A DNA stretch of 64,000 bases from an uncultured Gammaproteobacteria bacterium (GTDB lineage: Bacteria; Patescibacteriota; Microgenomatia; CAYQLK01): the NCBI GenBank assembly GCA_964445355.1, contig CAYUKQ010000001.1, forward strand, positions 12,277 through 76,276, read 5' to 3'. Positions 4,927 through 30,307 of the stretch are shown here, piece after piece. Position numbers and translations under genes: made by a program. Below the pieces are notes generated by a model. That model worked only from the letters and a program-made list of their open reading frames with translations. It was not told the origin of the DNA and made no database searches. Position 1 is the stretch's first letter. Each line of letters opens with the position of its first letter.

Positions 4927-6240
4927 ATGGAAGTCAGAGTAAGAGTTGCGCCGTCACCCACAGGCACACCGCACATAGGTTTTAGCAGAACTGCAGTTTT
5001 TAACTGGTTATTTGCCAAAGCGAACAAGGGAAAATTTATTCTCCGTATCGAAGACACGGATCAGGTGCGATTGGTACCAGGCTCTGAAGAAAAAATTATC
5101 GAGGGACTTAAGTGGCTTGAAATTGAACCCGATGAAAGCCCAATTCTTGGTGGTGAATATGGCCCATATATTCAATCACAAAGACTGGATATTTATCACA
5201 AATACGCCGACGAATTACTTAGTTCAGGTAAGGCATACAAAGAAGATGGGGCTATTCGTTTCAAAACTAAGACAAACGGTGTAACTTCTTGGGAAGATCT
5301 AATTCACGGCAAAATTGAGTTTGCTAACGACACATTTGGCGATTTCGTAATTATCAAATCAGACGGGTATCCTACTTACCATTTTGCTCATGTTATTGAC
5401 GATCATTTAATGCGGATTAGTCATGTTTTTCGTGGCGATGAGTGGATATCTTCAACCCCCAAACATATTCAAATATTTGAAGCACTCGGATGGGGCAGTG
5501 AAATACCTTTTTATGTCCACCTGCCATTAATTGTCGGTCCAGATAAGGCAAAACTCAGTAAGCGTCACGGAGCTGAGTCAGCGATGATTTATCGCGACAA
5601 CGGTTACTTACCAGAAGCGATTTTTAATTTTTTAGCATTACTGGGATGGTCACCAAAAACAGATCAGGAAATATTCTCCAGAGAAGAACTAATTGCAAAA
5701 TTTGACCTAAAAGGTGTCAATCCTACGATGCCAACTTTCAATATTGATAAACTTAATTGGTACAATGGTCAGTATATTCGTGCACTTAGCGACTCAGATC
5801 TGGCTGACAGAATAATAAATGGCAATTTTATTGACACAAAAATTGTCACAAAGGATCAGATCCTCAAAATAATTCCATTGATCAAAGAAAGAATGGTGAC
5901 TTTGAAAGACTTTGAAAAATTCTCTACATTTTTCTTTGGAGAATTCGCACCCAACATTACTGAGTTATCCAAAAAACATTCCGAAAAAGAAATCACAACC
6001 ATTTTAAACGACGCGCTAAATATTTTAGATCACCAGGACACCCTTGACACTTTAAATCTTGAGGAATCATTCAGGAGCTATGTACAAAAAACGCAACAAA
6101 AACCCTCCAATGTTTTTATGGTCCTTCGCGTAGCTGTCACGGGATCCATAGCTACTCCGCCATTGTTTCAAACAATGGAAGTAATTGGAAAAGATGAGTG
6201 TATTAGTAGGATCAAACAAAACCTCTCTCAAATCAAATGA
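4927..6240 (+). CDS. gltX: Glutamyl-tRNA synthetase
   Basis: Class I HIGH-type motif (PSPTGTPHIGFSRTAVFNW) and KMSKS-like KLSKRHG. 437 aa. Confidence 0.9.
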   Translation: MEVRVRVAPSPTGTPHIGFSRTAVFNWLFAKANKGKFILRIEDTDQVRLVPGSEEKIIEGLKWLEIEPDESPILGGEYGPYIQSQRLDIYHKYADELLSSGKAYKEDGAIRFKTKTNGVTSWEDLIHGKIEFANDTFGDFVIIKSDGYPTYHFAHVIDDHLMRISHVFRGDEWISSTPKHIQIFEALGWGSEIPFYVHLPLIVGPDKAKLSKRHGAESAMIYRDNGYLPEAIFNFLALLGWSPKTDQEIFSREELIAKFDLKGVNPTMPTFNIDKLNWYNGQYIRALSDSDLADRIINGNFIDTKIVTKDQILKIIPLIKERMVTLKDFEKFSTFFFGEFAPNITELSKKHSEKEITTILNDALNILDHQDTLDTLNLEESFRSYVQKTQQKPSNVFMVLRVAVTGSIATPPLFQTMEVIGKDECISRIKQNLSQIK

Positions 6241-7028
6241 AGCCCGGACTGTTTATTTTAATTTTAATATTATCTGTAACAGCCTTGGTTTTAGCGGTAA
6301 TTCGATTTAATAATTCACAATCCCAAACATCCACATCAAACACTACTTTACTTCCATCCCCAACACCGGCTGATAATATTTTCGGTAACGAAATTGCCTT
6401 TTCCGCTAGTGATAAGTCTACAATCTCAGCAACACTATATACTCCACTTAATACTCGACCACCGTTTAAATCACTAATTTTGGTGCACGAGTTTGACTCT
6501 GATCGGTCTGATTGGTCAAGCATAATACCTATTCTTTTAGAAAGCGGTTATCGTGTTCTTGCTTATGATCTAAGAGGTATGGGTAGATCCACATCTCAAA
6601 CACCAAAAAGCTCTCAAGAGAAATACTTTGATACCTTAGTTAGTGATCTTTCTGATGGAATTGAATATCTAAGAAATTTACCTGATACTGACAAAGAACA
6701 CGTTGGGGTGATTGGGTCAAGTATTGGTGCAAACATAGTCTATATTCACTCCGGACTGGATCAAAATACTGTCTCGGCAAGCGTTGCGATTTCGCCGGTC
6801 AATACGACGAGTTTTTTGACAGGGAAAAATCTCCCAAAGTTTCGCCCCTCAAATATTTTTTTCGTAACCGACCAAAAAGACTCTATTGCTTCTCAGGATT
6901 TTTTTAGCAAATCAAGTAATCCGAAATCTATCAAAATATATCCTGACATTCAAGCTCACGGAATTGAGCTTCTCAAAGACCGTCAAAAAATTGACGATAT
7001 CTTAAGCTGGCTTAGTACTAATATTTAG
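6237..7028 (+). CDS. Alpha/beta-hydrolase fold protein (dienelactone hydrolase/S9-like), secreted or membrane-anchored
   Basis: N-terminal TM/signal segment. GxSxG nucleophile elbow GSSIGAN. HEFDSDRSDW and LAYDLRGMGRS segments typical of alpha/beta hydrolases. 4-nt overlap with gltX stop. Confidence 0.65.
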   Translation: MKPGLFILILILSVTALVLAVIRFNNSQSQTSTSNTTLLPSPTPADNIFGNEIAFSASDKSTISATLYTPLNTRPPFKSLILVHEFDSDRSDWSSIIPILLESGYRVLAYDLRGMGRSTSQTPKSSQEKYFDTLVSDLSDGIEYLRNLPDTDKEHVGVIGSSIGANIVYIHSGLDQNTVSASVAISPVNTTSFLTGKNLPKFRPSNIFFVTDQKDSIASQDFFSKSSNPKSIKIYPDIQAHGIELLKDRQKIDDILSWLSTNI

Positions 7029-8060
7029 GATATTTTTAACCACTTCACCAACATCTCTTGCAGAATTAGTTTGCATTAATGCAATTCTGGCATCAACTGC
7101 GTTGTCAAAACCTTTACAGTACCAGGCAAGGTGTTTCCTGACTGATAAAAAATTTAACTCAGGTGTTAATATTTCAAATGCCTTTGAGTGTTCGATTGCG
7201 ATATTTAATTTTTTGTCAAAAGAGAAATTCTCACCGGTAAATATTTCCGGTGTACCAAAAGCTGCTCTGCCGATCAGGACACCGTCTATTTCGTAATCAT
7301 CAATTTTTTTCAAAGCCTCTGATCTGGACTTAACATCACCATTACCAATTAGCGTCGTTGTAGTTTTATGAGCAATTTTTGCTGCTTTAGCGATTTCGTT
7401 CCAGTCAGCAGATCCGGTATACATTTGTTTCAATGTTCTTCCGTGCAAAGTTATATTGGCAGGTTCAGCCTCTAACAAGTTTTCGATCCAGGACTCGGTA
7501 ACGACACTGTCGTAACCAATTCTTGTTTTTACCGAGACCGGTAATGGCGTTTTTTTAGGCTTTATATTATTCGTTTCGACAAAGCATTTAACCCAATTAA
7601 TAATATTTTCATTAAGTCCAATTTCCGTAATACTGACTCCTCCCGCCCAGTCGGCTGCTGCTTGTTTGGTTGTGATAATAATTTCTTTAGCCACAGACGG
7701 GTTAAGTATTAACGCTGCGCCACCACCTTTTTTCGCTACATGTGGATCTGGACAGCCCATATTTATATCGATCCCGTCAAATCCCATTTCTGATAATACA
7801 AATGTAGCCTTATAAAAATCATCTGGCGTCGAGCCGAATATCTGTCCGACAACAGGTGTAGCTGTTTTGTGATACACGAAAGCATTCAATAGTTTCTCAG
7901 CCCCAGCAGCAATTCCCTCGACCGAAGTGAATTCGGTAAACAATATATCTGACTTGCCATATTTGTCCACGATATACCTAAAAGCCGCGTCTGTTACCCC
8001 ATCCATGGGCGACATTGCAATAACCGGTTTAGATAATTTATCCCAAAATCCTCTATTCAT
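7002..8060 (-). CDS. dus: tRNA-dihydrouridine synthase (Dus family, FMN-dependent)
   Basis: N-terminal MSPMDGVTDAAFRYIV. TIM-barrel Dus motifs (DINMGCP, catalytic Cys context). Confidence 0.85.
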   Translation of the reverse strand: MNRGFWDKLSKPVIAMSPMDGVTDAAFRYIVDKYGKSDILFTEFTSVEGIAAGAEKLLNAFVYHKTATPVVGQIFGSTPDDFYKATFVLSEMGFDGIDINMGCPDPHVAKKGGGAALILNPSVAKEIIITTKQAAADWAGGVSITEIGLNENIINWVKCFVETNNIKPKKTPLPVSVKTRIGYDSVVTESWIENLLEAEPANITLHGRTLKQMYTGSADWNEIAKAAKIAHKTTTTLIGNGDVKSRSEALKKIDDYEIDGVLIGRAAFGTPEIFTGENFSFDKKLNIAIEHSKAFEILTPELNFLSVRKHLAWYCKGFDNAVDARIALMQTNSARDVGEVVKNILNISTKPA

Positions 8061-8173
8061 TTTCGTAATTATATATTATAGGATTAAATAATCGTTGTAC
8101 GAACAATGCTCTAGACTAATACTCTATTAATAATAAACTCAAATAGCTTACAATAAATATCACTGCTCAAATA

Positions 8174-9829
8174 ATGGAAAACATTTTTTCACAATTGGCT
8201 GTCGCGCTCAGTTTATCTTCATTAATTGGATTCGTTGTACTAAAATTCAAACTTCCTCTCGTAGTCGCTTACCTGCTTGCGGGAGTTGTTATTTCGATCT
8301 TGAGTATAATTGACCCCGGTCATTCCCCGGCATTTGAAGCCCTGCCAGAGATCGGTATTGCCTTTGTTCTTTTTTTGATCGGTATGGAATTAGATTTAAG
8401 AGAGGTCAGGTCTCTCGGTATACCGGTTATTGTTTCAGCGGTTGGGCAGGTTTTTATTACAACCCTTGCCGGATTTGTAATTGCGACTTCTTTAGGTTTT
8501 GAACCGGGAGTAAGTCTTTACCTTGGTCTTGGGCTGGCATTTTCTTCGACGGTGGTTGTGGTTAAGATGTTACTGGAAAAGCGTGAATTAACCTCACTGC
8601 ACGGCAAACTATCGATCGGTATTTTGCTCATCGAAGACATGATTGCAATTGTTGTATTAATGCTGATTTCCGTCAGCGACTCCGCACTTGGTCTGGGACT
8701 TCAGCAGAGCCTGCCGATTCTAACTCTCATACTTAAGGCAATTGGTCTGTTTGTACTTACATTCCTTCTTTCGAGGTTTGTACTTGAGCGCATTTTTGAC
8801 GCTGTGGCAAAATCGGTTGAACTTCTTTTTCTCACAGCCATTACCTGGTGTTTTGTCTTTACTACACTTGCAGTGGTGTCGGGGTTTTCAGTCGTTATTG
8901 GTGCTTTTTTGGCAGGCGTTGCGCTGGCTTCATCGCCGTATCATTTGCAGATCCAGGGGAAAATCAAACCACTTAGAGACTTTTTCTTAACATTATTCTT
9001 TGTTTACCTTGGTTTGCAGGCCAATATTACCGATGTGTTTAATTATTGGCCAACAATTCTTATTTTTACGGTGTTCGCTTTAGTTATTAAGCCAATTATT
9101 TATATTTTTCTCCTTGGTGCTTTTGGTTTTAGAAAACACACAATGTTTCAGTCGGGCCTCAGTCTTTCTCAAATCTCTGAATTTTCTCTGGTTGTACTTC
9201 TTGTGGGAGTCCAAGCCGGTATTGCCTCACAGGAATCACTTTCCGTTATGGCAGCAGTTGCCATTCTGTCAATAATATTTTCATCAACACTAATTAGTAA
9301 TTCCAAACTGATCTACCGTCTTGTTGGCAAGTTTGTTGTTATTTTTGAGCATCATTCAAAGACGCATATTTTTGAATCTCACACCGATCAAGAGCTAGAG
9401 GATCATGTGGTTATTATCGGCGCTGATCAGGTCGGCGGTCCAGTCGTTAATTATCTTCATCGCGAAAAAATCCCCATAATCGTTCTAGATTTTAATCCTC
9501 ACATTGTTCAGGAATACCGCCAGAGAGGTGTTAATATAATTTATGGTGACGCTGGCGATCCTGAAATACTCGAAGGATTGCAGCTTAACAAATCACGGTT
9601 GATCATATCCACGGCCAATGATTTGACCGATAACGAAATGATTATTCTTGAAGCAAAAAAGAAAAAATCACAAGCAGCGATCGTCGTCAGAGCAAGCGAC
9701 AAAGAACACGCACAAATTTTAACGGAGCTCGGTGCCGATTATGTTATCCTGCCGGAACAGGTTTCCGGGGATTTTTTGCTAACACACCTTAAGACCCACT
9801 GGCCAAAAGTGAAATTTCCGAAGATTTAA
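8174..9829 (+). CDS. CPA2-family monovalent cation:proton antiporter with C-terminal RCK/TrkA-N domain (KefB-like)
   Basis: About 12 TM helices followed by a Rossmann segment VVIIGADQVGGPVVNYL. 551 aa. Confidence 0.8.
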   Translation: MENIFSQLAVALSLSSLIGFVVLKFKLPLVVAYLLAGVVISILSIIDPGHSPAFEALPEIGIAFVLFLIGMELDLREVRSLGIPVIVSAVGQVFITTLAGFVIATSLGFEPGVSLYLGLGLAFSSTVVVVKMLLEKRELTSLHGKLSIGILLIEDMIAIVVLMLISVSDSALGLGLQQSLPILTLILKAIGLFVLTFLLSRFVLERIFDAVAKSVELLFLTAITWCFVFTTLAVVSGFSVVIGAFLAGVALASSPYHLQIQGKIKPLRDFFLTLFFVYLGLQANITDVFNYWPTILIFTVFALVIKPIIYIFLLGAFGFRKHTMFQSGLSLSQISEFSLVVLLVGVQAGIASQESLSVMAAVAILSIIFSSTLISNSKLIYRLVGKFVVIFEHHSKTHIFESHTDQELEDHVVIIGADQVGGPVVNYLHREKIPIIVLDFNPHIVQEYRQRGVNIIYGDAGDPEILEGLQLNKSRLIISTANDLTDNEMIILEAKKKKSQAAIVVRASDKEHAQILTELGADYVILPEQVSGDFLLTHLKTHWPKVKFPKI

Positions 9830-9831
9830 TT

Positions 9832-10413
9832 ATGTCCAAAAAAAAACTAGCGATACTGACACTTATTTTATTTGCCTTACTGGTAGGAGCAGCATTTTAT
9901 TTCCGCCTTAAAGAAGCTCGTCTTGATATCAATGAGCCGGATTCTAATCAAAACACTGCAACGGCAACTGATCCAAGTGAAAAAGATGTCTCGGTTCAGA
10001 CATCTACCGATACAAGCGGGAAAAATATTTTTTCATCAATCGACAGTAAGCTTCAGGTGATCTATCCCGCCTCATGGCAGCTTACTAACCTACCCAGATC
10101 TAATCCCGATATTCTTCAGTCAATTACTCTTCAATCAGCAGGAATATTGGCAACCGTTGATATTTCAGAGCAGTATGACAGGATCATTGATAATTTCATT
10201 AACTGTCAGATAAATACCTGTGAAGAAAAAATTATCAACACTAAGCCGGTTATTATTGAGAATTCTCCGCAGGATACACCCAAGATTATTTCACTAACAA
10301 CTATTTTTAATCGCAAGGTCTACAGAGTCACCTTCAATATTGAAAGCGGTACCAATCAAGCGCAAAATACCCAAGCCGTTCAGGACGTAATTTCCACGAT
10401 CAAGTATTTTTAG
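9832..10413 (+). CDS. Hypothetical secreted/membrane-anchored protein
   Basis: N-terminal TM/signal (LAILTLILFALLVGAAFY). No recognisable domain. Start 3 nt after upstream stop. Confidence 0.5.
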   Translation: MSKKKLAILTLILFALLVGAAFYFRLKEARLDINEPDSNQNTATATDPSEKDVSVQTSTDTSGKNIFSSIDSKLQVIYPASWQLTNLPRSNPDILQSITLQSAGILATVDISEQYDRIIDNFINCQINTCEEKIINTKPVIIENSPQDTPKIISLTTIFNRKVYRVTFNIESGTNQAQNTQAVQDVISTIKYF

Positions 10414-10652
10414 CTGTTGATTAATAACTCCTTCTGTAACTTAGATAATGACTTAATTCTTGCTTCTTCTTTTAGTGCTTCTGACCGGCCTGCCATCCTC
10501 AATGAGTAAGCAATCCTCACAGGTCTTCTTGTTCTGGTGTATTTTGAATCAGAATTTATGGAGTTATGTTCTGATAGTCTCCGACTAAGATTGGTTGTGA
10601 TACCAGTGTATAAGCTTCCATCTGCACATCTAAGAATATAAACAAAATACAT
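10410..10652 (-). CDS. GIY-YIG domain protein (UPF0213/YazA-like small nuclease)
   Basis: MYFVYILRCADGSLYTGITTNLSRRLSEHN is a textbook GIY-YIG motif. The ORF track extends to 10763, but the internal ATG at 10652 gives the canonical about 80-aa protein and removes the overlap with the divergent gene. Confidence 0.7.
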   Translation of the reverse strand: MYFVYILRCADGSLYTGITTNLSRRLSEHNSINSDSKYTRTRRPVRIAYSLRMAGRSEALKEEARIKSLSKLQKELLINS

Positions 10653-10695
10653 TTTTCTCACCTGCGTTATTATGATGCTGATATAATTTTGCCAG

Positions 10696-11880
10696 ATGTC
10701 GCCAGAAAAAAAAGATTTCGTTTCCGAATGGGTCAAAACCCCCAGATCTGCAGAGGAATTCACTCAAAATTTTGAAAAGTCGCGTGTGGTTCATGGTCGA
10801 CCGTTAGCACACGCATACCAAAAACTCGTCGAAATTGAAGGTTTAAATAAAACCGACCTTCTTTGTCTGGGGATCGGGACCGCCAAGGTCGAAGAGATGA
10901 TGAGGCTTGATTCCGCTCGTATAACCGCGATCGAATTTAATGAGTCCTATATTGCTAAAGCCAAAACTCGTCTTCCCAGGGCGAAATTTTTACAGGGAAG
11001 AATGGAAGATTTAATTCAGTCCGTCGATCCGTCATCAATTTGCCTCAGTCAGGAATCGCTTGATTGTATTCCTCCTGCTCAACTTCCCGAGCTGGTCGGC
11101 AGGATCAAACAAAAGACCGGTAAGCTGGTTGCTATTCAGACTTACAGTCCTGATCCGGAATTTTACGGATCCTCCTGGTCTGGAGCAGATCACGCCATTG
11201 GTGGTCTGGGTCTTGAAGGTGCAACAATACAACAGCAAAAAGTTTTAGAAACCAAATTGAACAATCAAGGTGTTCAATCGACGCTAGATAACCCTCGAAG
11301 AATGCTTAGTGAATTACAAAAATATGTTGAAAATATTATTGGAGCAAGATTCAGTATCGATATTGTAGAGGCACTTGAACACATTGGTTACCCATTTACT
11401 GATCTTCCCAAAGAGGCAGGGCTTCGCAGTCTGCCAGCTCAAGCCTCGCTTTTACTCAATCACACTGAATTACAAGTTGAACACCTTAAAAACGTTTTAG
11501 GTAGACATCTAGCGAATCGCCATCGAGAGGCTGGTCTTTATATTGGTATTGACACCACTCATCGCTTCCTCCAATTGTTATTAGGAACATTTCGAATTGA
11601 TCTGTTTCAACAGCTTTTAGTCCGAGCTTGCCAAGAAGCAGGTTACTGCGACATACGCTTAAAATCTATCAATGCTTCTGAAAAAAGGACCCTAGAACCT
11701 TCTGAATTAGTTGCTCAGTTTAACCGTTCATTGGATGTAATTAAGAAAAAACCAGTTTTCCGACGGATCAGGCCTGACGATAAGTATAGTCGTGCCTTTG
11801 TTGGCTCGCCAATTATTCTCATGGAACCATCTGACAATACTTACTCAATAGCCAGAGTACCTTACTTATCGGCGGCGTGA
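10696..11880 (+). CDS. Hypothetical protein (possible Rossmann/methyltransferase-like N-terminal region)
   Basis: 394-aa ORF. Weak glycine-rich segment LLCLGIGTAKVEE. No confident domain assignment. Confidence 0.45.
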   Translation: MSPEKKDFVSEWVKTPRSAEEFTQNFEKSRVVHGRPLAHAYQKLVEIEGLNKTDLLCLGIGTAKVEEMMRLDSARITAIEFNESYIAKAKTRLPRAKFLQGRMEDLIQSVDPSSICLSQESLDCIPPAQLPELVGRIKQKTGKLVAIQTYSPDPEFYGSSWSGADHAIGGLGLEGATIQQQKVLETKLNNQGVQSTLDNPRRMLSELQKYVENIIGARFSIDIVEALEHIGYPFTDLPKEAGLRSLPAQASLLLNHTELQVEHLKNVLGRHLANRHREAGLYIGIDTTHRFLQLLLGTFRIDLFQQLLVRACQEAGYCDIRLKSINASEKRTLEPSELVAQFNRSLDVIKKKPVFRRIRPDDKYSRAFVGSPIILMEPSDNTYSIARVPYLSAA

Positions 11881-13431
11881 TTTTTTTGATACGACATCGG
11901 TACCAATTGCTTGAGTGATATTCGCATATCCATCGCTTTTGATTAATTCACTAAGTCCATAATTAATCTGCATAATTAATTGTGGGCCAACAAACACCAT
12001 TCCCGTGATCAGCTGAACTAAGCTGGCACCATTTTTTATTTTTGTATAAGCATCTTCAGCCGAAAAAACGCCTCCACATCCGACAATAATAAAACGCGTG
12101 CCGTAATTTTTGTAAGCAAGTTTAATTAGCTTATTGGAGTCATCAAACGTTGGTCTCCCGCTGAAATAACCCTGTTTGAACTTAGCTACCTCACTTTTGT
12201 CAAGCAGAGGGTGTTTTTTGTTTTTTTGTAAATTTCCAAAAATTACACCGACAGGGGAGTGTTTAGCAATAACCTTTAACATCTCCAGTGTTTCTTTCTC
12301 TGTTTTCTCGATCGGCATTTTGACAAAGACGGGTTTAGATAATTTTAAGCTGTCAATTGCAGTAAGTAATGCTGAAAGATTTTTCGATGAATAAAATTCC
12401 ACATTTCCCGACAAATTCGGACAGCTGATATTTAATTCATAATAAGCGTGTTTAACTTTTGATTTTTCTACTACGCTAAAGGCCGCAACAATATCCTCAA
12501 CACTTTGTTTTTGCGTCAATTTATCCGTGTTTGTTCTACCAATGCTAATACCAACCGGGATACCAAATACCTCACCTTTAAGTTTTTTACTAACTACTTC
12601 AACACCCTGATTCTTAAATCCTTTATTGACCATTAGTGATCTCGACTTAATCAATCGACCCAGCATCGGTCGGGGATTCCCGTCATACGCTCCATTTGTC
12701 AATGTTCCCATCGATTGGAAACCAAAACCCCAAGGTGCCAGTGACTTGCCAAGCTTAGCTTCATAGTCGAACCCCGCTGCCAGTCCAATTGGGTAATTAA
12801 AATTAAGTCCAGCGACTTTTTGTTTTAATTCCGGCAAATCGGACCTGATCAGGGAAGCAACAAGCCATCTTGAAACACTCATTCTGCCCACGCTTGCACC
12901 CAGTCCGGTCACAACTATGTGCACCATTTCTGGGTCAAAAGCAAAAAATATTCGTTTAATTACATATCGATAAGTCAGTCTGAATACATCTAAGATCAAT
13001 AATTTTCTTTCTCTTCCAAAATAAGCTTGCATGAATGCAAAAATAAAAGTCGAAACGAACGCGGAAACCATGCAATAGATACAAATCCCTTTTATGACTG
13101 CGAACTGCAGATAAACAAAATACATTGAGAATCCAAAACCTACCAAGGATTGAGCTACCGCCAACTTACCAGCTATTATTCGATATTTTGTTAAGCTAAA
13201 TAATAGCAATACTGTCAGCGCCAAGTACTGAATAATTCCCCAGACAGGCAAGGGAACTCCAAGCATTACCGAATACTGGCTTCGCAAAACTCTTCCACAA
13301 TCGACAAACAAAAAAGAACTGGTCGTGCACGGTGGCAAGGTTCCAGCAAAATGTTCATGTGCCAGATAAATTGCGTCTCCAAGCCCAAATATTGTAAGTG
13401 CCAGCAAAGTTACCAATACAAACTTCCTCAT
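11866..13431 (-). CDS. pyrD: Fusion protein: N-terminal VKOR (vitamin K epoxide reductase-like, DsbB analogue) domain + C-terminal dihydroorotate dehydrogenase (class 2, quinone-dependent, PyrD)
   Basis: N-terminus has loop cysteines (PPCTTSSFLFVDC), SxxxxGxP (SQYSVMLGVPLPVWG) and the active-site CxxC in a TM helix (KGICIYCMVSAF), as in bacterial VKOR. C-terminal part aligns by eye with E. coli PyrD (FNYPIGLAAGFDYEAK..., NKGFKNQGVE, GISIGRTN). Confidence 0.7.
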   Translation of the reverse strand: MRKFVLVTLLALTIFGLGDAIYLAHEHFAGTLPPCTTSSFLFVDCGRVLRSQYSVMLGVPLPVWGIIQYLALTVLLLFSLTKYRIIAGKLAVAQSLVGFGFSMYFVYLQFAVIKGICIYCMVSAFVSTFIFAFMQAYFGRERKLLILDVFRLTYRYVIKRIFFAFDPEMVHIVVTGLGASVGRMSVSRWLVASLIRSDLPELKQKVAGLNFNYPIGLAAGFDYEAKLGKSLAPWGFGFQSMGTLTNGAYDGNPRPMLGRLIKSRSLMVNKGFKNQGVEVVSKKLKGEVFGIPVGISIGRTNTDKLTQKQSVEDIVAAFSVVEKSKVKHAYYELNISCPNLSGNVEFYSSKNLSALLTAIDSLKLSKPVFVKMPIEKTEKETLEMLKVIAKHSPVGVIFGNLQKNKKHPLLDKSEVAKFKQGYFSGRPTFDDSNKLIKLAYKNYGTRFIIVGCGGVFSAEDAYTKIKNGASLVQLITGMVFVGPQLIMQINYGLSELIKSDGYANITQAIGTDVVSKKSRRR

Positions 13432-14112: not shown

Positions 14113-14183
14113 GCTGCGGGACAGGGATTCGAACCCCAATACCACCCTCCAGAGGGGCGTGTCCTACCATTAGACGATCCCGC
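14113..14183 (-). tRNA. tRNA-Gln (anticodon CUG)
   Basis: Reverse complement folds as a tRNA: acceptor UGCGGGA/UCCCGCA (7 bp), D-arm GUC...GAC, anticodon stem CGCCC/GGGUG with loop CUCUGGA (anticodon CUG), T-loop GGUUCGAAUCC, discriminator G. D-arm layout parallels E. coli tRNA-Gln. Confidence 0.75.
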
Positions 14184-14238
14184 AAAAATTTTTTTTATAA
14201 CTTCTGTCTAATAGGAAGGTTCTGACTTTAGTCAGGTT

Positions 14239-14352: not shown

Positions 14353-14381
14353 TTGACAATTATACTATCCTATAGTATAAT
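14353..14381 (+). promoter_or_regulatory. Consensus sigma70-like promoter TTGACA-17-TATAAT in front of the GC-rich ORF
   Basis: TTGACA at 14353-14358, 17-nt spacer, TATAAT at 14376-14381, in AT-rich sequence. SD AAGGAAGG at 14401-14408. Confidence 0.5.
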
Positions 14382-14418
14382 TACCAACAGTTCTTTAAAA
14401 AAGGAAGGTCTGAACAAG

Positions 14419-14853
14419 TTGATCGAAACCCTCAGGAAGCCGCCCCGTGCGCTCAAGATCTACTACCTCGTCCTCGCCGCCTTCTTCGCGGTCTGGGCGG
14501 GCACAATTGCCGGGCAAGCCCCGGACAGCAACACGACCGCCGGCATCATCGCCGTCTGGTTCGGCTACGCCTTCGTTCCGGTCATCGCTCTGGCGTTCGC
14601 GACCGAGTCGCGCCGACCCGTCCTCACCCAGGTCATTCTCTGCTCGAGCGGGAGTGTACTGATCCTGGCAGGGTGGGTGATCGGATACGATTCGGTCAAC
14701 GATCCAGCGCCAATGGTCTGGTACGAGCCGATCATCTTTGTCGCAATCGCGGCGTTGATGGTCTTCCCGATGATGGTCTTCACCCTCATCTACCTCGGCA
14801 TCAGCAAGCTCGCCGGCCACTTCGGCCTCATCCCTACCTTCCTCAGAGCCTAG
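14419..14853 (+). CDS. Small 4-TM membrane protein encoded by an anomalously GC-rich (about 60%) ORF. Function unknown.
   Basis: ORF track gives 14353..14853 using a TTG inside the -35 box. The in-frame TTG at 14419, 10 nt after AAGGAAGG, coincides exactly with the jump in GC content. Four hydrophobic helices. Codon usage is GC3-rich, unlike neighbours. Confidence 0.6.
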   Translation: MIETLRKPPRALKIYYLVLAAFFAVWAGTIAGQAPDSNTTAGIIAVWFGYAFVPVIALAFATESRRPVLTQVILCSSGSVLILAGWVIGYDSVNDPAPMVWYEPIIFVAIAALMVFPMMVFTLIYLGISKLAGHFGLIPTFLRA

Positions 14854-14930
14854 GCAGCCTCACCAGGAGACTGCCAAAGCTCAAAGATCGACTAGGTCGG
14901 GAGCTAAACAAGCTCCCACCTCCCGCTTCA

Positions 14931-14968
14931 GCCCCCGCTCCAAAACCAGTTGGACGGGGGCCTTTTTT
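14931..14968 (+). terminator. Rho-independent terminator after the GC-rich ORF
   Basis: gcccccg(c)tccaa-aaccag-ttggacgggggc hairpin followed by TTTTTT. Confidence 0.7.
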
Positions 14969-14989
14969 GCTAAAATACCTAAAAAACAT

Positions 14990-15499
14990 ATGTCTGCACA
15001 AAAAATTTCTCTCGACCAAGCCAAAAAAGACAAGTTGTTCTATGTCGTGGCCAACGTTGTCGTCTATCGACCTTCAGACCGACGGTGTCTGCTACTCAAA
15101 CGTTCAGACAATGAAAAGGTCCATCCCAGCAAGTACGCAGTTTGCGGAGGTAAGCTTGAATGGTCAGACCTAGATATTACTCACCCCACGAGAGTCAATG
15201 GAGAAGTGCTTGATTATCAAGACGCGCTAGAAAAACTACTCAACCGTGAAGTTTTCGAAGAGGCAGGTATTAAGATCAAACAAGAATTGAAATACATCAA
15301 TAATGTAGCCTACATTCGCCCCGACGGAATACCTGTCGTGCTACTCAAATTTGCTGCTGAATATCTGTCCGGCGAGGTGGTATTAGAAAAGGGGAGTTTT
15401 AGCGATTATATTTGGGTCAATACCCAAGAGCTTAAAGATCTGGATTGTATTAGCGGAATCAAAGAAGAAGTAATACAAACCATCGATATTTTTGCATAA
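14990..15499 (+). CDS. NUDIX-family hydrolase (non-canonical Nudix box)
   Basis: REVFEEAGI matches the REUxEExGU core of the Nudix box. 169 aa. GC content intermediate (about 45%). Confidence 0.55.
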   Translation: MSAQKISLDQAKKDKLFYVVANVVVYRPSDRRCLLLKRSDNEKVHPSKYAVCGGKLEWSDLDITHPTRVNGEVLDYQDALEKLLNREVFEEAGIKIKQELKYINNVAYIRPDGIPVVLLKFAAEYLSGEVVLEKGSFSDYIWVNTQELKDLDCISGIKEEVIQTIDIFA

Positions 15500-19858: not shown

Positions 19859-21151
19859 ATGTCAAAACAAAGCTTGATCGAAAGCAACTTAGAGTTGCTA
19901 TATCAAAAATGCGTTTCTGCCCACGAAAAAACAAAATTTATATCAACCGTTCATCGGAGCTTTTTCTACAACGATGAACCCAAGCTGTATACGTTCATTT
20001 TGAACAGTAAAAACTCGTCCAAAAAATTCCGTACCAACGCCAGCGGCTCGGCCTGGGATGAAAAACTCGCTTTTATTAAAGGCTATATTGAAATGATAGA
20101 AAGATACGCACTGATCCCTTCAGATCAAGACCTCGATCATTTAGTTCTCTCGTCCGAGACTGGATTGCCTAAGGCAATAAAACTTAGCAAATTCATGAAA
20201 TTCTCACATAGCCAAATGATCGACAAGTTTTTTGCCCGAAAAGTCGCGACCGAGAATGACCCTTTATACTGGACTGAAGCTATTGATTTATGTGCCCGCA
20301 AAACCGTATATATTCCGGCTCAAACTGTTTTTTGTCCGTTCGGAAAAAAAGAAAAAATCATTCGCACGCCAATTTCAACGGGCGCATCAGCGGGTTTGGA
20401 CAAAAATTCAACAATAACCAGGGCAATTTTTGAAGTTCTTGAAAGAGACACGTTTATTTCATCCTATTTGGGTCGCCTTTCAGGTACGATAATTAAGATA
20501 AAAAACCCAAAAGGAGTGATCAAAGATTTACTGGACGAATTTAGCTTTTATTTACTCGAACCAACAATTATCAGATTGGACAACGATTATCATATTCCCG
20601 TCATACTGACAATTCTTACGGATCTGACTAAAAACAAGCCGGTCATTACCTTCGGACTCAAGTGTCATCCTGATCTGAACAGGGCGATTCAGGGTAGTTT
20701 GGAGGAATCATTTCATACTCGCGGATGGATGCGTGACGAATTGGCAAAATCCGATACTGTCTACATTAATTCACTAATCAAAAATATCGAACACACTTAC
20801 GAGCTCAAAGATCGCGGACTTATCTGGTCTCAACCTTTCGTTCTCAAAAACGTTGATTTTTGGCTTAATAACAAAAAAACATTTAATCTATCTCTCAAAG
20901 CAAGTTATCCAAAAATTCCATTAAATACTCTCCTTAAAAAGTTACAAGCAATCGGATTTGATATTTATCTCAAAGAACTAACTGATCCGGAGATCGCCAA
21001 ACTTGGTTTTTACGCCTGTAAGGTCATCATACCCCAAGCACAACCTCTTTACCTGGAAGAGGATTTTCAATATTTGGACACCAGCCGTATTGAAAAGATC
21101 GCAAAACATAAGATCACCAAGCTTAATACATTTTTACAACCCTTCCTATGA
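19859..21151 (+). CDS. YcaO-domain cyclodehydratase (SagD/TOMM D-protein-like), stand-alone
   Basis: N-terminal NASGSAWDEKLAFIKGYIEMIERYA and central PISTGASAGLDKNSTITRAIFEVLERDTF match the YcaO signatures (ASGxG...ERY and SNG-AxG...E--ERD). 430 aa. No fused E1-like domain. Confidence 0.75.
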   Translation: MSKQSLIESNLELLYQKCVSAHEKTKFISTVHRSFFYNDEPKLYTFILNSKNSSKKFRTNASGSAWDEKLAFIKGYIEMIERYALIPSDQDLDHLVLSSETGLPKAIKLSKFMKFSHSQMIDKFFARKVATENDPLYWTEAIDLCARKTVYIPAQTVFCPFGKKEKIIRTPISTGASAGLDKNSTITRAIFEVLERDTFISSYLGRLSGTIIKIKNPKGVIKDLLDEFSFYLLEPTIIRLDNDYHIPVILTILTDLTKNKPVITFGLKCHPDLNRAIQGSLEESFHTRGWMRDELAKSDTVYINSLIKNIEHTYELKDRGLIWSQPFVLKNVDFWLNNKKTFNLSLKASYPKIPLNTLLKKLQAIGFDIYLKELTDPEIAKLGFYACKVIIPQAQPLYLEEDFQYLDTSRIEKIAKHKITKLNTFLQPFL

Positions 21152-21861
21152 AAGATTATATTTCTGAGTTTTTTATCCAAACCGGGACTCAGTCCGATAA
21201 TGCACCCAAGCCTATCCCATATGATAAATGGCCGATTGCCTGGAAAACAATTCATTACAAGAACTACCCCAGATTTCCGCGTATCGGAATTACAAAATTC
21301 AAACCAGTCTCAGAGATCGAAAAAATCATTTCCAGAAGACGAAGTAATCGAAATACCAATAGGATATTATCCGCTGGCAAATTAAAGAAAATCTTGCATT
21401 TTGCAAACTATGGCGTATCAATTGATGGGCGAAGCTATCGTGCGTACCCCTCAGGGGGAGCCAGATATCCGCTGGAAATTTATCTATTTATTAATAATGT
21501 AAAAGGCCTAAAAAAGGGTCTTTATCATTATGCTTTCGAAACAAATTGCTTAGAATTACTTCAGGATAAAGACATGACAGCAGAATTAAAAGACTTGCTG
21601 GTAGATGGCTGGGTTGCCGACTCAGCTGTTTTTTTGGTCATTACCGCCGTTCCCGGCCGAAGTGCGATTAAATATGCAAACAAGTCATTAAGATATCTCT
21701 TTATTGAAGCAGGCCACTTAGGTCAAAATATATTATTGCTGGCAGAAAAATACAAAGTTAATACCTGTCCGATCGGTGGTTTTTATGAAGATAAGCTCAA
21801 TAAACTCCTTCGAATTGACAGGACCAGCGAGAAAGCAATATATTCAATTGCTATAGGTTGA
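21148..21861 (+). CDS. SagB/McbC-type FMN-dependent dehydrogenase (nitroreductase superfamily) of TOMM pathways
   Basis: RSYRAYPSGGARYPLEIYLFI matches the SagB-family R-x-Y-P-S-x-G-A-x-YP-x-E-x-Y motif. 4-nt overlap (ATGA) with the ycaO stop. Confidence 0.75.
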   Translation: MKDYISEFFIQTGTQSDNAPKPIPYDKWPIAWKTIHYKNYPRFPRIGITKFKPVSEIEKIISRRRSNRNTNRILSAGKLKKILHFANYGVSIDGRSYRAYPSGGARYPLEIYLFINNVKGLKKGLYHYAFETNCLELLQDKDMTAELKDLLVDGWVADSAVFLVITAVPGRSAIKYANKSLRYLFIEAGHLGQNILLLAEKYKVNTCPIGGFYEDKLNKLLRIDRTSEKAIYSIAIG

Positions 21862-23609
21862 TTATGAGTAATGAAAAATTAAGGCAAAATTCACCAGAAA
21901 CGAAAATGCTCGAAAAAGAACCATCAAAAGCCAGACTGACAGCAACCGATCTGAGTATTAGTGTCGGCACCAGAGACTTAATAGTTGATGGCAACTTCTC
22001 AATTGGCACATCAGAAAGACTAGCCTTGATTGGTCGTAATGGCAGCGGAAAAACTTCGCTTCTCGACTTGGTTGCCGCTGTTTCCACGGGCGATCAGCCC
22101 CCTGAATATCTCGACGTAAAGGGGGACATTTCTCTGACCCAAGCCAAGGTAGGCTATCTAAGACAAGATATTCAAGTCGCCTATGATGGTACGGTCAAGG
22201 GGTACATAGATCAGTGTGCACAAGATGTAGCTGCAGTCATCGCAAACTACGATGCTCTTACCGCTAGACTGGCTGACGGCGAGACCGGCGACGAGCTAAT
22301 GGATGAATACGGCAAGGCCTTGGATGAGATGTCGCAGCTGGACGCTTGGGACTTCCCTCGCAAAAGAGAAATGATTCTGCAAGGCCTTGGTCTGACAGCA
22401 GATTACTTGGATCGGGATATGACCGAGGTAAGCGGGGGAGAAGCGACAAAAGTATCTTTAGCGGGAATTTTGGTTGCTTCACCTAATCTAATTTTACTCG
22501 ACGAACCGACCAATAATCTCGATCCTGAGAGCGTGAAATTTTTTGAAGAATGGGTCAAAACTACACAAACTTCACTGCTGTTAGTTTCCCACGATCGGGA
22601 ATTTTTAGACGAAACTGTAACAGAAATACTTGAAATAGATGAAGATACAAAACACCTGATCAGATTCGGAGGTAACTATTCTTTTTATAAACAGAAAAAA
22701 CAAGAGATGTTTGACGCACAGATGCGGTCGTATGAAGAACAACAAAAAAAACGTAAACAACTAGAAGATTCAGCAAAGCAGCTGAAACAAGAGGCGCAAA
22801 GATTTGAAGGTATGTCCAACGATTCTTTTTATCGGGCAAAGGGGGGAGGGCTTGCAAAAAGAGCAAAATCTCAACTGGAGCGAATCGAGCGCGAGTTAAA
22901 TGACATTCCCGAGCCAGTACTCCCTAAACGGCCATCCTTTGAGGTAAAAGAACCACAAATTTCAGACGGGACAGTCATGGTGGCTCAAGATCTTTCGTAT
23001 CGTTATCCAAACAACTCCGTTGATACTTTTTCTAAGGTCAATTTTTCTATTCGTGGAGGTGAAAGGGTTGGAATTGTGGGCGCAAACGGTGCCGGTAAAA
23101 GTACACTCCTTCGAGTTTTAATCGGCAACCTTCCTTCTACAGGCGGGAAAGTAGAGCAATTCAAAGGACTCAAAGTCGGATATTTACCTCAAACAACTGA
23201 CAGGCTTAAACCTGATCAGAACATCATCGACTACATTCGCCGAAAAGCCTCTGTCTCCGTCGAAGACGCATATAAAGCGCTTTCCAGAATGCTACTTGAT
23301 GATTCGGCGCACAAATCCGTATCTGATTTTAGTTTTGGAGAGTTTCGCCGTATCGAGCTAGTAGCACTTTTTGCCTCTAATCCTGACGTATTAGTTCTTG
23401 ATGAGCCGACTAATCATTTAGATATTTATACGATCGAAACTCTTGAAGATGCGCTCACTAGATATCACGGGACGGTTATAACTGTTACACACGATGAAAG
23501 ATTCTTAAAAGATCTAAACATCGACAAAATCATTGTTGTCGGAAAAGGCGGGTTAGTCGGCATGCACAAAGTAGAAGATTCAAAAGATGTCGCTGGATAC
23601 TTTACTTAA
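21858..23609 (+). CDS. ABC-F family ATPase (two tandem NBDs, no TMD), translationally coupled to the RiPP enzymes
   Basis: Walker A GRNGSGKTSLL and GANGAGKSTLL. Signature VSGGEATKVSLA. Walker B LLDEPTNNLD / VLDEPTNHLD. Lys/Gln/Glu-rich inter-domain linker (KKQEMFDAQMRSYEEQQKKRKQLEDSAKQLKQEAQRFEG). ATGA overlap with sagB-like stop. Confidence 0.75.
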   Translation: MIMSNEKLRQNSPETKMLEKEPSKARLTATDLSISVGTRDLIVDGNFSIGTSERLALIGRNGSGKTSLLDLVAAVSTGDQPPEYLDVKGDISLTQAKVGYLRQDIQVAYDGTVKGYIDQCAQDVAAVIANYDALTARLADGETGDELMDEYGKALDEMSQLDAWDFPRKREMILQGLGLTADYLDRDMTEVSGGEATKVSLAGILVASPNLILLDEPTNNLDPESVKFFEEWVKTTQTSLLLVSHDREFLDETVTEILEIDEDTKHLIRFGGNYSFYKQKKQEMFDAQMRSYEEQQKKRKQLEDSAKQLKQEAQRFEGMSNDSFYRAKGGGLAKRAKSQLERIERELNDIPEPVLPKRPSFEVKEPQISDGTVMVAQDLSYRYPNNSVDTFSKVNFSIRGGERVGIVGANGAGKSTLLRVLIGNLPSTGGKVEQFKGLKVGYLPQTTDRLKPDQNIIDYIRRKASVSVEDAYKALSRMLLDDSAHKSVSDFSFGEFRRIELVALFASNPDVLVLDEPTNHLDIYTIETLEDALTRYHGTVITVTHDERFLKDLNIDKIIVVGKGGLVGMHKVEDSKDVAGYFT

Positions 23610-29230: not shown

Positions 29231-30307
29231 ATGACTTTTATTCAAAACTACAATCAGTTCCTCGGTGAGTTTAACCCTTTCTTGGAAAGATATCTCTCAA
29301 CGCTTCAAAAAACTTCCGACAGTATGCACGATAGTGCACAATTATTGATTGATATTTCCTCACAAGCAGTCAATAGTTCCGGTAAACGGCTTCGCCCGTT
29401 TCTGGTTGCTCTTGGCTATCAAATTGCTTCAAGTCAAACTGAAGTTTCGAATGAAGTTTTAAAAGCCGGGCTTATTTCTGAGATATTTCACTCATTTGCC
29501 TTGGTTCATGATGACATCATTGATCAGTCTGATACTCGTCGAGGGCAAAAAACTTCGCAAGTTCTATTCTCAGAGGAACACAAGGCCAAAAATTTTAAGG
29601 GAACTGATCAGCACTTTGGTACTTCGATGGCAATTTTAACCGGTGATCTGTTGATCGCTTATGCGACTAAGATACTTACAGATCTTAAATTTAGTCGATC
29701 GATTAAGGAAAAAGCTAGTCAGTGTTTTGCTGATATGTTTATTAACCTAATTATCGGACAGTACCAAGACGTTTATCAGTCATTTAATACCGATCGCCCG
29801 TCCAAAGAAATGATTTTATCAACATTAAGATGGAAGTCTGGCGAATATTCGATCGAATTCCCATTAAAATTTGGAGGCATACTCGGCGAGGCTGGTGATG
29901 GCTTGCTAGATTTCTATGCTAAGTTCGCTCAGCCCGTTGGAATCGCCTTTCAACTAAAAGATGATTTGCTTGGAGTTTTTGGTGATAGTACGTCAATTGG
30001 GAAATCCAATCTTTCTGATATTCGTGAGGGTAAAAATACACTATTAATTAATTATGCTCTGTCTGCTGCCAGTAATCAGCAGAAAAACACCCTTGACCAG
30101 ATCCTTGGTAATGTAAATGCTCAAGAAGAGGATCTCGAAAAGATAAAAACAATTCTCATTGAGACTGGCACAAAAAATAAAGTAGAGGAAGAGATTTCTG
30201 CAATGGTTCTTTCTGCACAAAGTTTAATAGAGCGATCCAAAATATCAAAAGATCATCAAGAAATTTTAAGCGGATTTGCAGACTTTATTATTAATCGTAA
30301 TCGTTGA
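29231..30307 (+). CDS. Polyprenyl diphosphate synthase (trans-isoprenyl diphosphate synthase; GGPP/FPP synthase-like)
   Basis: First Asp-rich motif LVHDDIIDQSDTRRG and second motif FQLKDDLLGVFGD. Confidence 0.85.
   Translation: MTFIQNYNQFLGEFNPFLERYLSTLQKTSDSMHDSAQLLIDISSQAVNSSGKRLRPFLVALGYQIASSQTEVSNEVLKAGLISEIFHSFALVHDDIIDQSDTRRGQKTSQVLFSEEHKAKNFKGTDQHFGTSMAILTGDLLIAYATKILTDLKFSRSIKEKASQCFADMFINLIIGQYQDVYQSFNTDRPSKEMILSTLRWKSGEYSIEFPLKFGGILGEAGDGLLDFYAKFAQPVGIAFQLKDDLLGVFGDSTSIGKSNLSDIREGKNTLLINYALSAASNQQKNTLDQILGNVNAQEEDLEKIKTILIETGTKNKVEEEISAMVLSAQSLIERSKISKDHQEILSGFADFIINRNR

Follow-up and report, generated by a model that had tools for sequence, protein, structure and literature searches.

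An ORF on the (-) strand of the window (the whole 64-kb stretch of DNA analysed here), complete from its ATG start to the stop codon at 11866-11868, encodes a protein of 521 aa (positions 11866-13431) in which a VKOR domain (residues 8-133 in Pfam) precedes a full-length class-2-like DHODH (residues ~150-513), with about 12 residues between the two. This protein is tentatively identified as a membrane protein, from a CPR bacterium of Microgenomates type, that is genuinely bifunctional, namely a physically coupled VKOR-DHODH pair that would work on one, probably scavenged, membrane quinone, and to this reading as a whole, the shared quinone included, we assign a probability of roughly 0.45. The earlier note on this DNA had described one 521-aa ORF joining the two enzymes, which is borne out by the intact frame, by the Pfam matches of both domains and by homologues built alike; the CPR setting and the descent of both halves from quinone-using enzyme families, also put forward there, are likewise supported. 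The halves are connected by a short basic linker (G-R-E-R-K-L-L-I-L-D-V-F-R-L; residues 139-152; 12976-13017, (-) strand, as are all features of the fusion given below) leading from TM4 to helix alphaA of the DHODH, and this junction, close to the position at which a frameshift or stop had been considered, contains neither.

The VKOR domain with its four TM helices (residues 1-138; 13018-13431) is delimited by Pfam, hydropathy, the distribution of lysine and arginine, and the AF2 model. It matches the Pfam profile PF07884 with 85.4 bits (cutoff 27.5) over 131 of the 134 profile positions, while it resembles solved VKORs only distantly (E 0.002) and the NCBIfam equivalogs for the VKOR family protein remain below their cutoffs (60 vs 120). 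The TM helices fall at residues ~3-24, 57-81, 90-113 and 115-138 by hydropathy and at 2-29, 61-78, 84-113 and 118-137 in the AF2 model. The K+R counts (1.9 at the N-terminus, 2.9 in loop 2 and 3.0 after TM4, vs 0.5 in loop 3) follow the positive-inside distribution, from which an N-in/C-in topology is predicted, and together with the helices they place the DHODH on the cytoplasmic side of the membrane and the VKOR cysteines on the outer side, which answers the question of sidedness raised in the earlier note. The extracytoplasmic loop carries the cysteine pair C35 and C45 (13297-13329) and, six residues after C45, the conserved serine S51 (13279-13281), which is also the spacing of human C51/S57. 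The redox centre CXXC (C117-I-Y-C120; 13072-13083) is located at the outer end of TM4 and aligns with CMYC of the Synechococcus VKOR (4nv2/3kp9). All five residues (C35, C45, S51, C117 and C120) are invariant in 102 homologues of the fusion. The loop cysteines and the CIYC site had thus been read correctly, whereas the proposed SxxxxGxP motif has only approximately that spacing, the actual residues being S51-QY-S54-VML-G58-V-P60.

The DHODH half is composed of a class-2-type N-terminal helical domain, which corresponds to the membrane-binding quinone-tunnel domain (residues 153-200; 12832-12975), and an FMN-binding alpha/beta-barrel catalytic domain (residues 201-513; 11893-12831). The barrel is supported by PF01180 (DHO_dh; residues 202-496; 155.4 bits, cutoff 27) and by PDB matches to 6b8s (E 6e-42) and 8ofw, and the NCBIfam models of quinone-dependent DHODH align with residues 150-513. 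The helical domain is supported by the alignment with E. coli PyrD, which begins at PyrD residue 2, by the helices of the AF2 model (139-162, 167-183 and 185-195) and by Foldseek, which gives a TM of 0.95 to the full-length M. tuberculosis enzyme 8ofw and finds solely DHODH entries among the best 50 PDB matches listed. The quinone-tunnel residues H19, R102 and F115 of E. coli are kept as H171, R259 and F272, and the equivalents of E. coli N172, N177, K217 and N246 are conserved. Among the family models, TIGR01036 (pyrD_sub2) scores above its cutoff (222.6 vs 200), all ten PRK05286 equivalog models score below theirs (nearest NF003652, 262.6 vs 267), and the class-1 models lie far under cutoff (TIGR01037, 65.5 vs 270; PRK02506, 52 vs 301).

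The catalytic base of characterised class-2 DHODHs is a serine (E. coli S175, human S215). In the fusion this serine is absent, and the active-site loop N334-I-S-C337-P-N339 (12415-12432) has an invariant cysteine at the same position. A second departure concerns the conserved lysine of 'AAGxDK' (E. coli K66), which is replaced by Y223 (12763-12765), while K270 (12622-12624), in the loop V268-N-K-G-F-K273, is paired with it. The residues at 223 and 270 are (Y,K) in 43 cases and (K,Y) in 43, and (K,K) or (Y,Y) never occurs, a reciprocal covariation that suggests compensation. In the same loop E. coli N111 corresponds to V268, with the Asn shifted by one residue, and both N269 and K270 are invariant. 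The DHODH half belongs to a CPR-specific clade with a Cys base and a Lys/Tyr swap at 223/270, and departs from the canonical class-2 enzyme. The Cys base was considered as a mark of the fusion and rejected as such: 78 unfused representative clusters of the Cys/Lys type share the Cys while retaining the normal Lys, and Ser is found in only ~12, so that the cysteine is a property of a large sub-group. The assignment to class 2 made in the earlier note needs correction in that the enzyme is not a canonical one (Cys for Ser, Tyr for K66, Lys at 270); given these departures and the equivalog scores below cutoff, electron acceptor and substrate are predicted ones.

Both domains are present in a single protein in all 120 best database homologues (51-99% identity; 494-544 aa), among them a 99%-identical copy on an independent contig, and the one-ORF fusion is encoded in 41 of 80 GTDB species-representative loci; this survey answers the call in the earlier note for other proteins of the same architecture. 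Many of the GTDB records are titled 'uncultured Gammaproteobacteria/Pseudomonadales' although their fusion is that of records named as CPR phyla, and these titles were treated as unreliable. Full-length fusions also occur in roughly a dozen representative clusters at 50% identity. In the DHODH half, N334, S336, C337, N339, K371, N400, G453, G454, R259 and H171 are invariant in the 102 homologues. Mean pairwise identity is 46% for the VKOR and 64% for the barrel, indicating that both halves are under constraint. Many close DHODH relatives are unfused and have no VKOR within 6 kb, so that covalent attachment of a VKOR is dispensable for the DHODH. On a rough NJ tree without support values, the fused forms are interspersed among the unfused ones (18 parsimony changes); monophyly of the fusion is not adopted on this tree, nor is the number of events relied on. 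In two related loci the halves are broken apart, by a frameshift or overlap in L084 and by an intervening tRNA-Gly gene in L046. No paper describing the fusion was found in searches combining VKOR with DHODH or pyrD and CPR with DHODH, which covered few subscription-journal papers, and the database label of the protein is simply DHODH.

The strongest evidence for a functional link between VKOR and DHODH, which the earlier note had missed, is their repeated independent genomic linkage. In four loci (L082, L092, L094 and L095), pyrD is followed by an overlapping or abutting VKOR gene, and the VKOR of these loci is of a different lineage (33-36% identity). A second VKOR fusion (P0144) is built on a K-type DHODH, which is a different DHODH lineage, and in a complete Woesebacteria genome a standalone VKOR gene is located upstream of pyrD, at a distance of 3 kb. 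Linkage has arisen in two or more lineages of DHODH and in two or more of VKOR. A further related DHODH (P0146) carries PAP2, likewise an integral membrane enzyme, fused to its N-terminus.

The neighbourhood of the fusion and its relatives offers some support for a pyrimidine role of the DHODH, as pyrF is located 9 kb away on a 1.24-Mb contig and dCMP deaminase, RNR and pur genes adjoin relatives. In ~45 related loci, neither other pyr genes nor a gene for a DsbA-, MdbA- or thioredoxin-like partner were found to form a conserved operon with the fusion, and no thioredoxin-like or DsbA-like partner is encoded in the window or within 5-10 kb of these loci. The best recurrent neighbours (SNase, NUDIX, a membrane ORF and GIY-YIG) are shared by only 9 of 45 fused loci, and PNPOx-like, SDR and Crp/Fnr-like genes occur in ~6 loci each. 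The whole annotated 64-kb window contains no other pyr gene and no men, ubi or cytochrome oxidase gene, and neither a quinone biosynthesis gene nor a quinol oxidase is encoded in it or in the 5-10 kb flanks of the related loci.

Most likely, the four-helix VKOR, with its loop cysteine pair and CXXC outside the cell, would re-oxidise a thioredoxin-like disulfide catalyst, and the two electrons would pass to a quinone held within its helix bundle. Next to nothing separates the last VKOR helix from the predicted membrane-binding helices of the DHODH, a cytoplasmic, FMN-dependent enzyme of class-2 type; in the AF2 model (pLDDT 92, pTM 0.91) TM4 (118-137) is contiguous with alphaA (139-162), and the high pTM for a chain of two domains suggests a defined mutual orientation. 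The DHODH half would oxidise dihydroorotate to orotate for pyrimidine synthesis and deliver its electrons to the membrane quinone through the tunnel of its N-terminal helices, as is normal for class 2. The two enzymes would then be physically united and share a single lipid-soluble quinone, which is probably scavenged, as no quinone biosynthesis gene is present in the window, and fusion or translational coupling may hold both at a scarce carrier in 1:1 amounts. The quinol may be re-oxidised by a non-respiratory route, through O2, a soluble acceptor or some oxidase. The quinone sites of the two enzymes lie at opposite membrane faces in known structures. The suggestion in the earlier note that electrons of both reactions enter one quinone pool agrees with the quinone-using families of both halves, but since both enzymes normally reduce quinone, 'channelling' between them would not be a simple redox cycle, and the sharing is what we infer. 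For the same reason a shared quinone does not by itself account for the repeated linkage. Patescibacteria have been reported to be devoid of complete electron transport chains (Beam et al. 2020, PMC7507113), which supports the earlier note as regards respiratory chains in such genomes, though not as regards quinone biosynthesis, and leaves the sink for both reactions unexplained.

Such a sink would be provided if the VKOR half ran in reverse, the DHODH reducing a shared quinone and the quinol reducing the CXXC and loop cysteines, so that electrons of dihydroorotate would leave the cell as reduced thiols and the protein would be akin to a dihydroorotate-driven DsbD/CcdA; pyrimidine synthesis would then have its sink in disulfides outside the cytoplasm, with O2, peroxide or methionine sulfoxide as the final acceptors. 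The potentials of dihydroorotate/orotate (~ -250 mV) and DsbA-type disulfides (~ -120 mV) make this the sole producer-consumer relation between the halves that is downhill overall. It would account for the repeated fusion or translational coupling of two quinone reducers in cells without respiratory chains (PMC7507113), and the fusion has no gene for an oxidising DsbA-like partner next to it. On the other hand, no VKOR or DsbB is known to operate physiologically in the reducing direction, the step from quinol to disulfide would be slightly uphill with menaquinone, and the VKOR half keeps the canonical hallmarks of an oxidase (four Cys and Ser). Moreover, VKOR, which is frequent in CPR, generally adjoins MdbA-like oxidoreductases there (PMC6744442), and a methionine sulfoxide reductase gene is found in one neighbourhood only. 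Electron export of this kind is hence considered fairly unlikely, and we regard as unlikely its more comprehensive form, in which the fusion and its operon equivalents would be a self-contained trans-membrane electron conduit with one captive quinone, a reversed VKOR and disulfides as the sink of pyrimidine synthesis.

Electrons might instead flow from the VKOR to the flavin, with the VKOR quinol being re-oxidised by FMN at the DHODH tunnel and a soluble acceptor (fumarate, O2) being reduced at the orotate site, which would make the DHODH both the terminal oxidase of disulfide formation and a quinone-independent DHODH. Both reactions would thereby have a soluble sink although the cell has no respiratory chain; such a flow is in line with the position of the tunnel helices directly after VKOR TM4 and with the Cys base throughout CPR DHODHs, as in fumarate-using class-1A enzymes. 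It is nevertheless very unlikely, as the transfer from quinol to the DHODH flavin would be strongly uphill, the potentials of DHODH flavins being near -250 mV. In addition, many unfused enzymes have the Cys base as well, which by itself is uninformative on the acceptor, the class-1 models (TIGR01037 above all) are far under cutoff, and no fumarate-related genes are seen nearby.

The VKOR half might also serve chiefly as a membrane anchor, or the fusion might be a neutral result of gene adjacency without catalytic cooperation. Eukaryotic class-2 DHODHs have a simple TM anchor, the PAP2 fusion of P0146 is comparable, and the interleaving of fused and unfused forms on the rough tree would agree with it. 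The redox residues of the VKOR are all invariant, however, which argues that this half is not a degenerate anchor; in the pyrD→VKOR operons the VKOR is a separate downstream gene that cannot anchor by fusion, and the linkage spans at least two lineages of either enzyme, so that this explanation is quite improbable. A sequencing frameshift or chimeric assembly joining two genes, to which the broken loci L084 and L046 might lend some colour, is refuted along with chance, as the continuous ORF and its conserved linker recur in >160 independent sequences that stem from different projects, and the 99%-identical copy lies on an independent contig, and its probability is practically nil.

Compared with characterised systems, the VKOR half of the proposed VKOR-DHODH pair shares the four-helix core, the loop Cys pair, the Ser and the CXXC atop TM4 with bacterial VKORs (the Synechococcus VKOR-thioredoxin fusion, 3KP9 and 4NV2/4NV5; Actinomyces and Mycobacterium VKOR re-oxidising MdbA/DsbA), and its expected role is the same, namely regenerating an extracytoplasmic disulfide catalyst and reducing quinone. 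In the VKOR fusions described in the literature consulted, a thioredoxin-like electron donor, C-terminal and extracytoplasmic, makes up the extra domain (PMC4555120), whereas the partner here is a cytoplasmic flavoenzyme that itself donates electrons to quinone, and a fifth helix is absent. DsbB, a membrane quinone reductase regenerating DsbA, is a functional analogue of VKOR from a different family, and its profile is below threshold (E 0.077). The DHODH half matches class-2 enzymes (E. coli PyrD 1F76, H. pylori 6B8S, M. tuberculosis 8OFW and human) over their full length, including the N-terminal two-helix quinone-tunnel domain, and differs from them by the Cys in place of the Ser base, by Tyr at the position of Lys66 with Lys at 270, and by Val at that of Asn111 with Asn one residue later. 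Its N-terminus is fused to a polytopic redox enzyme, whereas that of class-2 enzymes is free in bacteria and bears a single TM anchor in eukaryotes. The Cys of the N-x-S-C-P-N loop is also found in class-1A DHODHs (Lactococcus lactis PyrDa and trypanosomatid enzymes), which, in contrast to the fusion, are soluble and lack the N-terminal helical domain. In the 'vitamin K redox modules' of giant viruses a VKOR gene is likewise coupled to an enzyme using the same quinone cofactor, but there an epoxidase-desaturase consumes the hydroquinone made by VKOR, while the DHODH partner here would also produce hydroquinone (PMC13486548).

CPR/Patescibacteria, for all their reported lack of complete electron transport chains, widely encode VKOR and class-2-like DHODH, two enzymes that depend on a membrane quinone pool in characterised systems. 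Their recurrent joining, in hundreds of fusion sequences and a second fusion lineage, in operons with translational coupling and as close neighbours, points to a specific solution for electron disposal, and the fusion offers one experimentally tractable gene with which the use of scavenged quinones and the electron acceptor of pyrimidine synthesis in CPR can be approached. It also bears on disulfide formation in the pili and surface proteins that are important to episymbiotic CPR life, and it draws attention to a distinct DHODH clade, with Cys base and swapped Lys/Tyr, annotated at present simply as 'quinone-dependent DHODH'. A reversed-VKOR conduit, if true, would be new on two counts, in the physiological direction of a VKOR family enzyme and in the class of acceptor used by a DHODH.

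Two other genes of the window were considered in relation to the fusion. The trans-polyprenyl synthase at 29231-30304 was rejected as a maker of quinone tails, as its best score is for the short-chain FPP/GGPP type and position -5 of the first Asp-rich motif is occupied by Phe. The Cys-rich ORF at 53360-54457, suggested in the earlier note as a VKOR substrate, is a possible one, but it lies 40 kb from the fusion, which has no thioredoxin- or DsbA-like partner near it; its product contains 18 Cys and an N-terminal hydrophobic segment.

The ORF at 11866–13431 (minus strand) starts with ATG, runs without interruption and encodes a protein of 521 amino acids, in which Pfam finds both VKOR (PF07884; residues 8–133, 85.4 bits), a membrane enzyme of extracytoplasmic disulfide formation, and dihydroorotate dehydrogenase (DHODH; PF01180; residues 202–496, 155.4 bits), confirming the claim of the earlier note that VKOR and a PyrD-type DHODH are joined in one reading frame. 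The quinone-dependent DHODH models of NCBIfam span residues 150–513, thus including the class-2 N-terminal extension; TIGR01036 is passed (222.6, cutoff 200), and ten narrower PRK05286 equivalogs all score under their cutoffs. The nearest solved structures are class-2 DHODHs from H. pylori, M. tuberculosis and mammals (E 6e-42 and weaker), and the VKOR half by itself gives a weak match to Synechococcus VKOR (E 0.002), with CIYC aligned on CMYC. Judged from its sequence, the fusion is established as two predicted intact catalytic modules.

The architecture, for which the earlier note had suggested a database survey, recurs widely. Both Pfam domains are present in 120 of the 120 best matches among 5.8 billion clustered proteins (51–99% identity, 494–544 aa), those with names coming from Levybacteria, Woesebacteria and Roizmanbacteria. 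When 1.84 billion 50%-identity representatives are searched exhaustively, about a dozen clusters prove to be full-length fusions, and fragments occur besides. The GTDB species representatives, scanned with the motifs YELNISCP and SL[ML]VNKG[FY]K, which confine the sampling to the DHODH clade of the window protein, yield 467 relatives, and VKOR and DHODH share one ORF in 41 of the best 80 of these loci. When 102 fusion proteins are aligned, C35, C45, C117 and C120 of VKOR and the loop residue Ser51 are invariant, as is most of the DHODH core (N334-I-S-C337-P-N339, K371, N400, G453-G454, R259 and H171). Any two of the sequences are on average 46% identical across VKOR, 34% across the helical linker domain and 64% across the barrel. 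Such proteins are already in public databases, labelled solely and plainly as DHODH. Taxon labels are unreliable in many homolog records: MAG records titled 'uncultured Gammaproteobacteria', 'Pseudomonadales', 'Saccharibacteria' or 'Limisphaerales' (loci L012–L091) often hold the same fusion or an unfused relative with the cysteine base and tyrosine (CY-type), and their organism names look like placeholders or mis-binning, the same gene occurring in CPR-named records.

The DHODH of the fusion is predicted to be a non-canonical, class-2-like enzyme, as the catalytic Ser175 of E. coli PyrD is replaced by Cys337, Lys66 by Tyr223, and Asn111 by Val268, which Asn269 adjoins. A cysteine base is rejected as a fusion-specific trait, as 78 unfused Cys/Lys-type representative clusters also contain cysteine while keeping the lysine. 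Tyr223 and Lys270 mark the clade of the window protein, in fused and unfused members alike. Among all sequences, the residue pair at positions 223 and 270 is (Y,K) in 43, (K,Y) in 43 and (K,M/A/L/F) in 44, and (K,K) or (Y,Y) in none; this reciprocal swap suggests that the lysine role may be retained from a nearby position, and so speaks in favour of a functional active site.

Hydropathy indicates four transmembrane segments (TM) in the VKOR half, and across the fusion family lysine and arginine are enriched at the N-terminus, in the TM2–TM3 loop and after TM4. This distribution implies that the VKOR core is N-in/C-in, with both cysteine pairs predicted outside and, on the point of topology raised earlier, the DHODH domain predicted in the cytoplasm. 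Residue 2 of E. coli PyrD aligns with residue 153 of the fusion, thus only about 12 residues lie between TM4 and helix alphaA of the quinone-tunnel domain. In an AlphaFold2 model built with the 102-sequence alignment (pLDDT 92, pTM 0.91), the TM4 helix (118–137) continues into helix 139–162, and superposition of its DHODH part with the full-length M. tuberculosis enzyme gives TM 0.95 and rmsd 2.0 Å. From the pTM of this two-domain chain we infer that the domains probably hold a defined mutual orientation. One predicted module faces outward and the other inward, with a probably rigid connection where DHODH normally takes membrane quinone.

The remaining 39 of the best 80 GTDB loci encode unfused DHODHs of the same clade (about 370–390 aa, lacking TM segments and beginning with the usual short N-terminus), which resemble the window DHODH domain as closely as the fused homologs do; in a rough NJ tree, which carries no support values, the two forms are interleaved. 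In L082, L092, L094 and L095, the unfused pyrD is immediately followed by a separate VKOR gene of 140–156 aa, which overlaps the pyrD stop codon in L092 and L095, begins 1 bp past it in L094, and in all four shares only 33–36% identity with the window VKOR domain. The protein P0144 is a VKOR fused to a Lys-type DHODH that has 53% identity to an unfused K-type enzyme and only 40% to the window DHODH; its closest named unfused relatives, few in number, come from other CPR phyla (Dojkabacteria/WS6, WWE3, Peregrinibacteria and Magasanikbacteria). In Woesebacteria, one complete genome of 1.27 Mb has an unfused K-type pyrD and, 3 kb upstream of it and in the same orientation, a standalone VKOR. Nothing supports cooperation of the two activities more strongly than this linkage, which recurs in structurally different forms. 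L084 contains a frameshift or overlap between the two halves, and in L046 (Woesebacteria GW2011_GWC1_42_9, 5875–7578) a tRNA-Gly(tcc) gene (6382–6456) stands exactly between the VKOR ORF (end 6378) and the DHODH ORF, and the usual fusion gene seems to have been divided by this tRNA gene or around it. The same DHODH group also includes P0146 (550 aa), with the membrane enzyme PAP2 phosphatase at its N-terminus, and P0148 (497 aa), with a C-terminal cytidylyltransferase-like domain.

VKOR in CPR, adjacent to MdbA-like oxidoreductases, has been published (PMC6744442); the extra domain named for multidomain homologs in the VKOR phylogeny is C-terminal and thioredoxin-like (PMC4555120), and giant viruses contain VKOR gene modules with other vitamin-K enzymes (PMC13486548). 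The full-text literature searched, the coverage of which is incomplete, nowhere describes VKOR and DHODH as fused or in one operon, and the pair is classed as a previously unremarked yet widespread domain combination, whose mechanism is open to experimental test.

Both families reduce quinone; the electron donor is a thioredoxin-like protein for VKOR and, via FMN, dihydroorotate for class-2 DHODHs. In the preferred reading (probability about 0.45), which like all functional statements on the fusion derives from sequence, both halves would act as one physically coupled unit on a single, probably scavenged quinone, and the quinol would be re-oxidised by a non-respiratory route. This reading is weakened, as two reducers make no cycle and Patescibacteria are without complete respiratory chains (PMC7507113). 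The main rival, in which VKOR would run in reverse and export dihydroorotate electrons to extracytoplasmic disulfides, accounts for the VKOR-DHODH linkage and is overall thermodynamically feasible, but it is without precedent in the VKOR family and is considered unlikely. Ranked under it, re-oxidation of the quinol by the DHODH flavin with a soluble acceptor would be improbable, as would a mere anchor or neutral fusion. That the ORF is an artefact is ruled out for practical purposes by the same architecture in all 120 best matches and in 41 of the 80 GTDB loci.

The window (GC 39%) looks like a typical CPR genome, encoding aminoacyl-tRNA synthetases, RelA/SpoT, NrdR with ribonucleotide reductase (RNR), class-I aldolase, H+-pyrophosphatase, type IV pilus genes, Lgt/Lit, SecA and a trans-polyprenyl synthase of the short-chain type. 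Annotation of the 64-kb window finds no other pyr gene and no men, ubi, oxidase or thioredoxin-like genes, and contexts of 5–10 kb around the homologs reveal no conserved gene neighbourhood. A pyrF gene lies 9 kb from the fusion on a 1.24-Mb contig, and dCMP deaminase, RNR and pur genes recur close to the fusion or its unfused relatives, which fits a true pyrimidine-synthesis role for the DHODH. The window RNR (32283–34946) contains a TSCPD domain, and a WS6 genome encodes a 1450-aa RNR with duplicated RNR domains directly upstream of pyrD (L098, 1420–5772).

Small flavoproteins and reductases recur by VKOR/DHODH genes across lineages, namely PNPOx-like proteins (up to 3 copies), nitroreductase, SDRs, Flavodoxin_2, FMN_red and Zn-ADH/QOR-like proteins (L007, 11570–13340; L009, 9510–13986; L095, 2237–2716; L002, 19004–19531; L098, 7095–7676; Zn-ADH in L092, L094 and L095), adjoined by Crp/Fnr-type regulators in L010, L092 and L094; they are a hint, nothing more, of quinone or flavin redox chemistry. 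GIY-YIG, NUDIX and Cupin_2 genes recur a few kb from the fusion in the window (10413–10763, minus strand; 14990–15496, plus strand), L002, L005, L007 and L009, a partial synteny without obvious functional tie to it. The pyrD–VKOR pair of L094 has, 2–4 kb further downstream, a TetR gene and after it genes for squalene/phytoene synthase, a UbiA-family prenyltransferase and a GT2 glycosyltransferase (7227–9608); this group resembles a carotenoid-type cluster, and a UbiA/MenA-like prenyltransferase near VKOR is noteworthy.

A ferric-reductase-like transmembrane protein (36639–37406, minus strand) has weak similarity to the heme-binding subunit MsrQ (49 bits vs cutoff 130), which in other bacteria takes electrons from quinols; it is possibly another quinone-linked membrane protein in a genome where quinone synthesis is not visible. 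The 365-aa ORF at 53360–54457, directly after secA and ahead of a histidine kinase and type IV pilus genes, encodes 18 cysteines and an N-terminal hydrophobic segment, has no Pfam match, and probably specifies an exported, disulfide-rich protein. Just downstream of a tRNA gene (14114–14184), a GC-richer stretch (14353–15173; 0.46 vs about 0.39) contains five long ORFs that overlap one another in several frames and on either strand; of these only 14353–14853 is gene-like (hydrophobic 166-aa product, no Pfam match). Three genes in a row at 19859–23606, encoding a YcaO cyclodehydratase (19859–21148), a nitroreductase-family protein (21148–21858) and an ABC-F-type ATPase (21858–23606), are possibly a cluster for peptide modification of the azoline/TOMM type.
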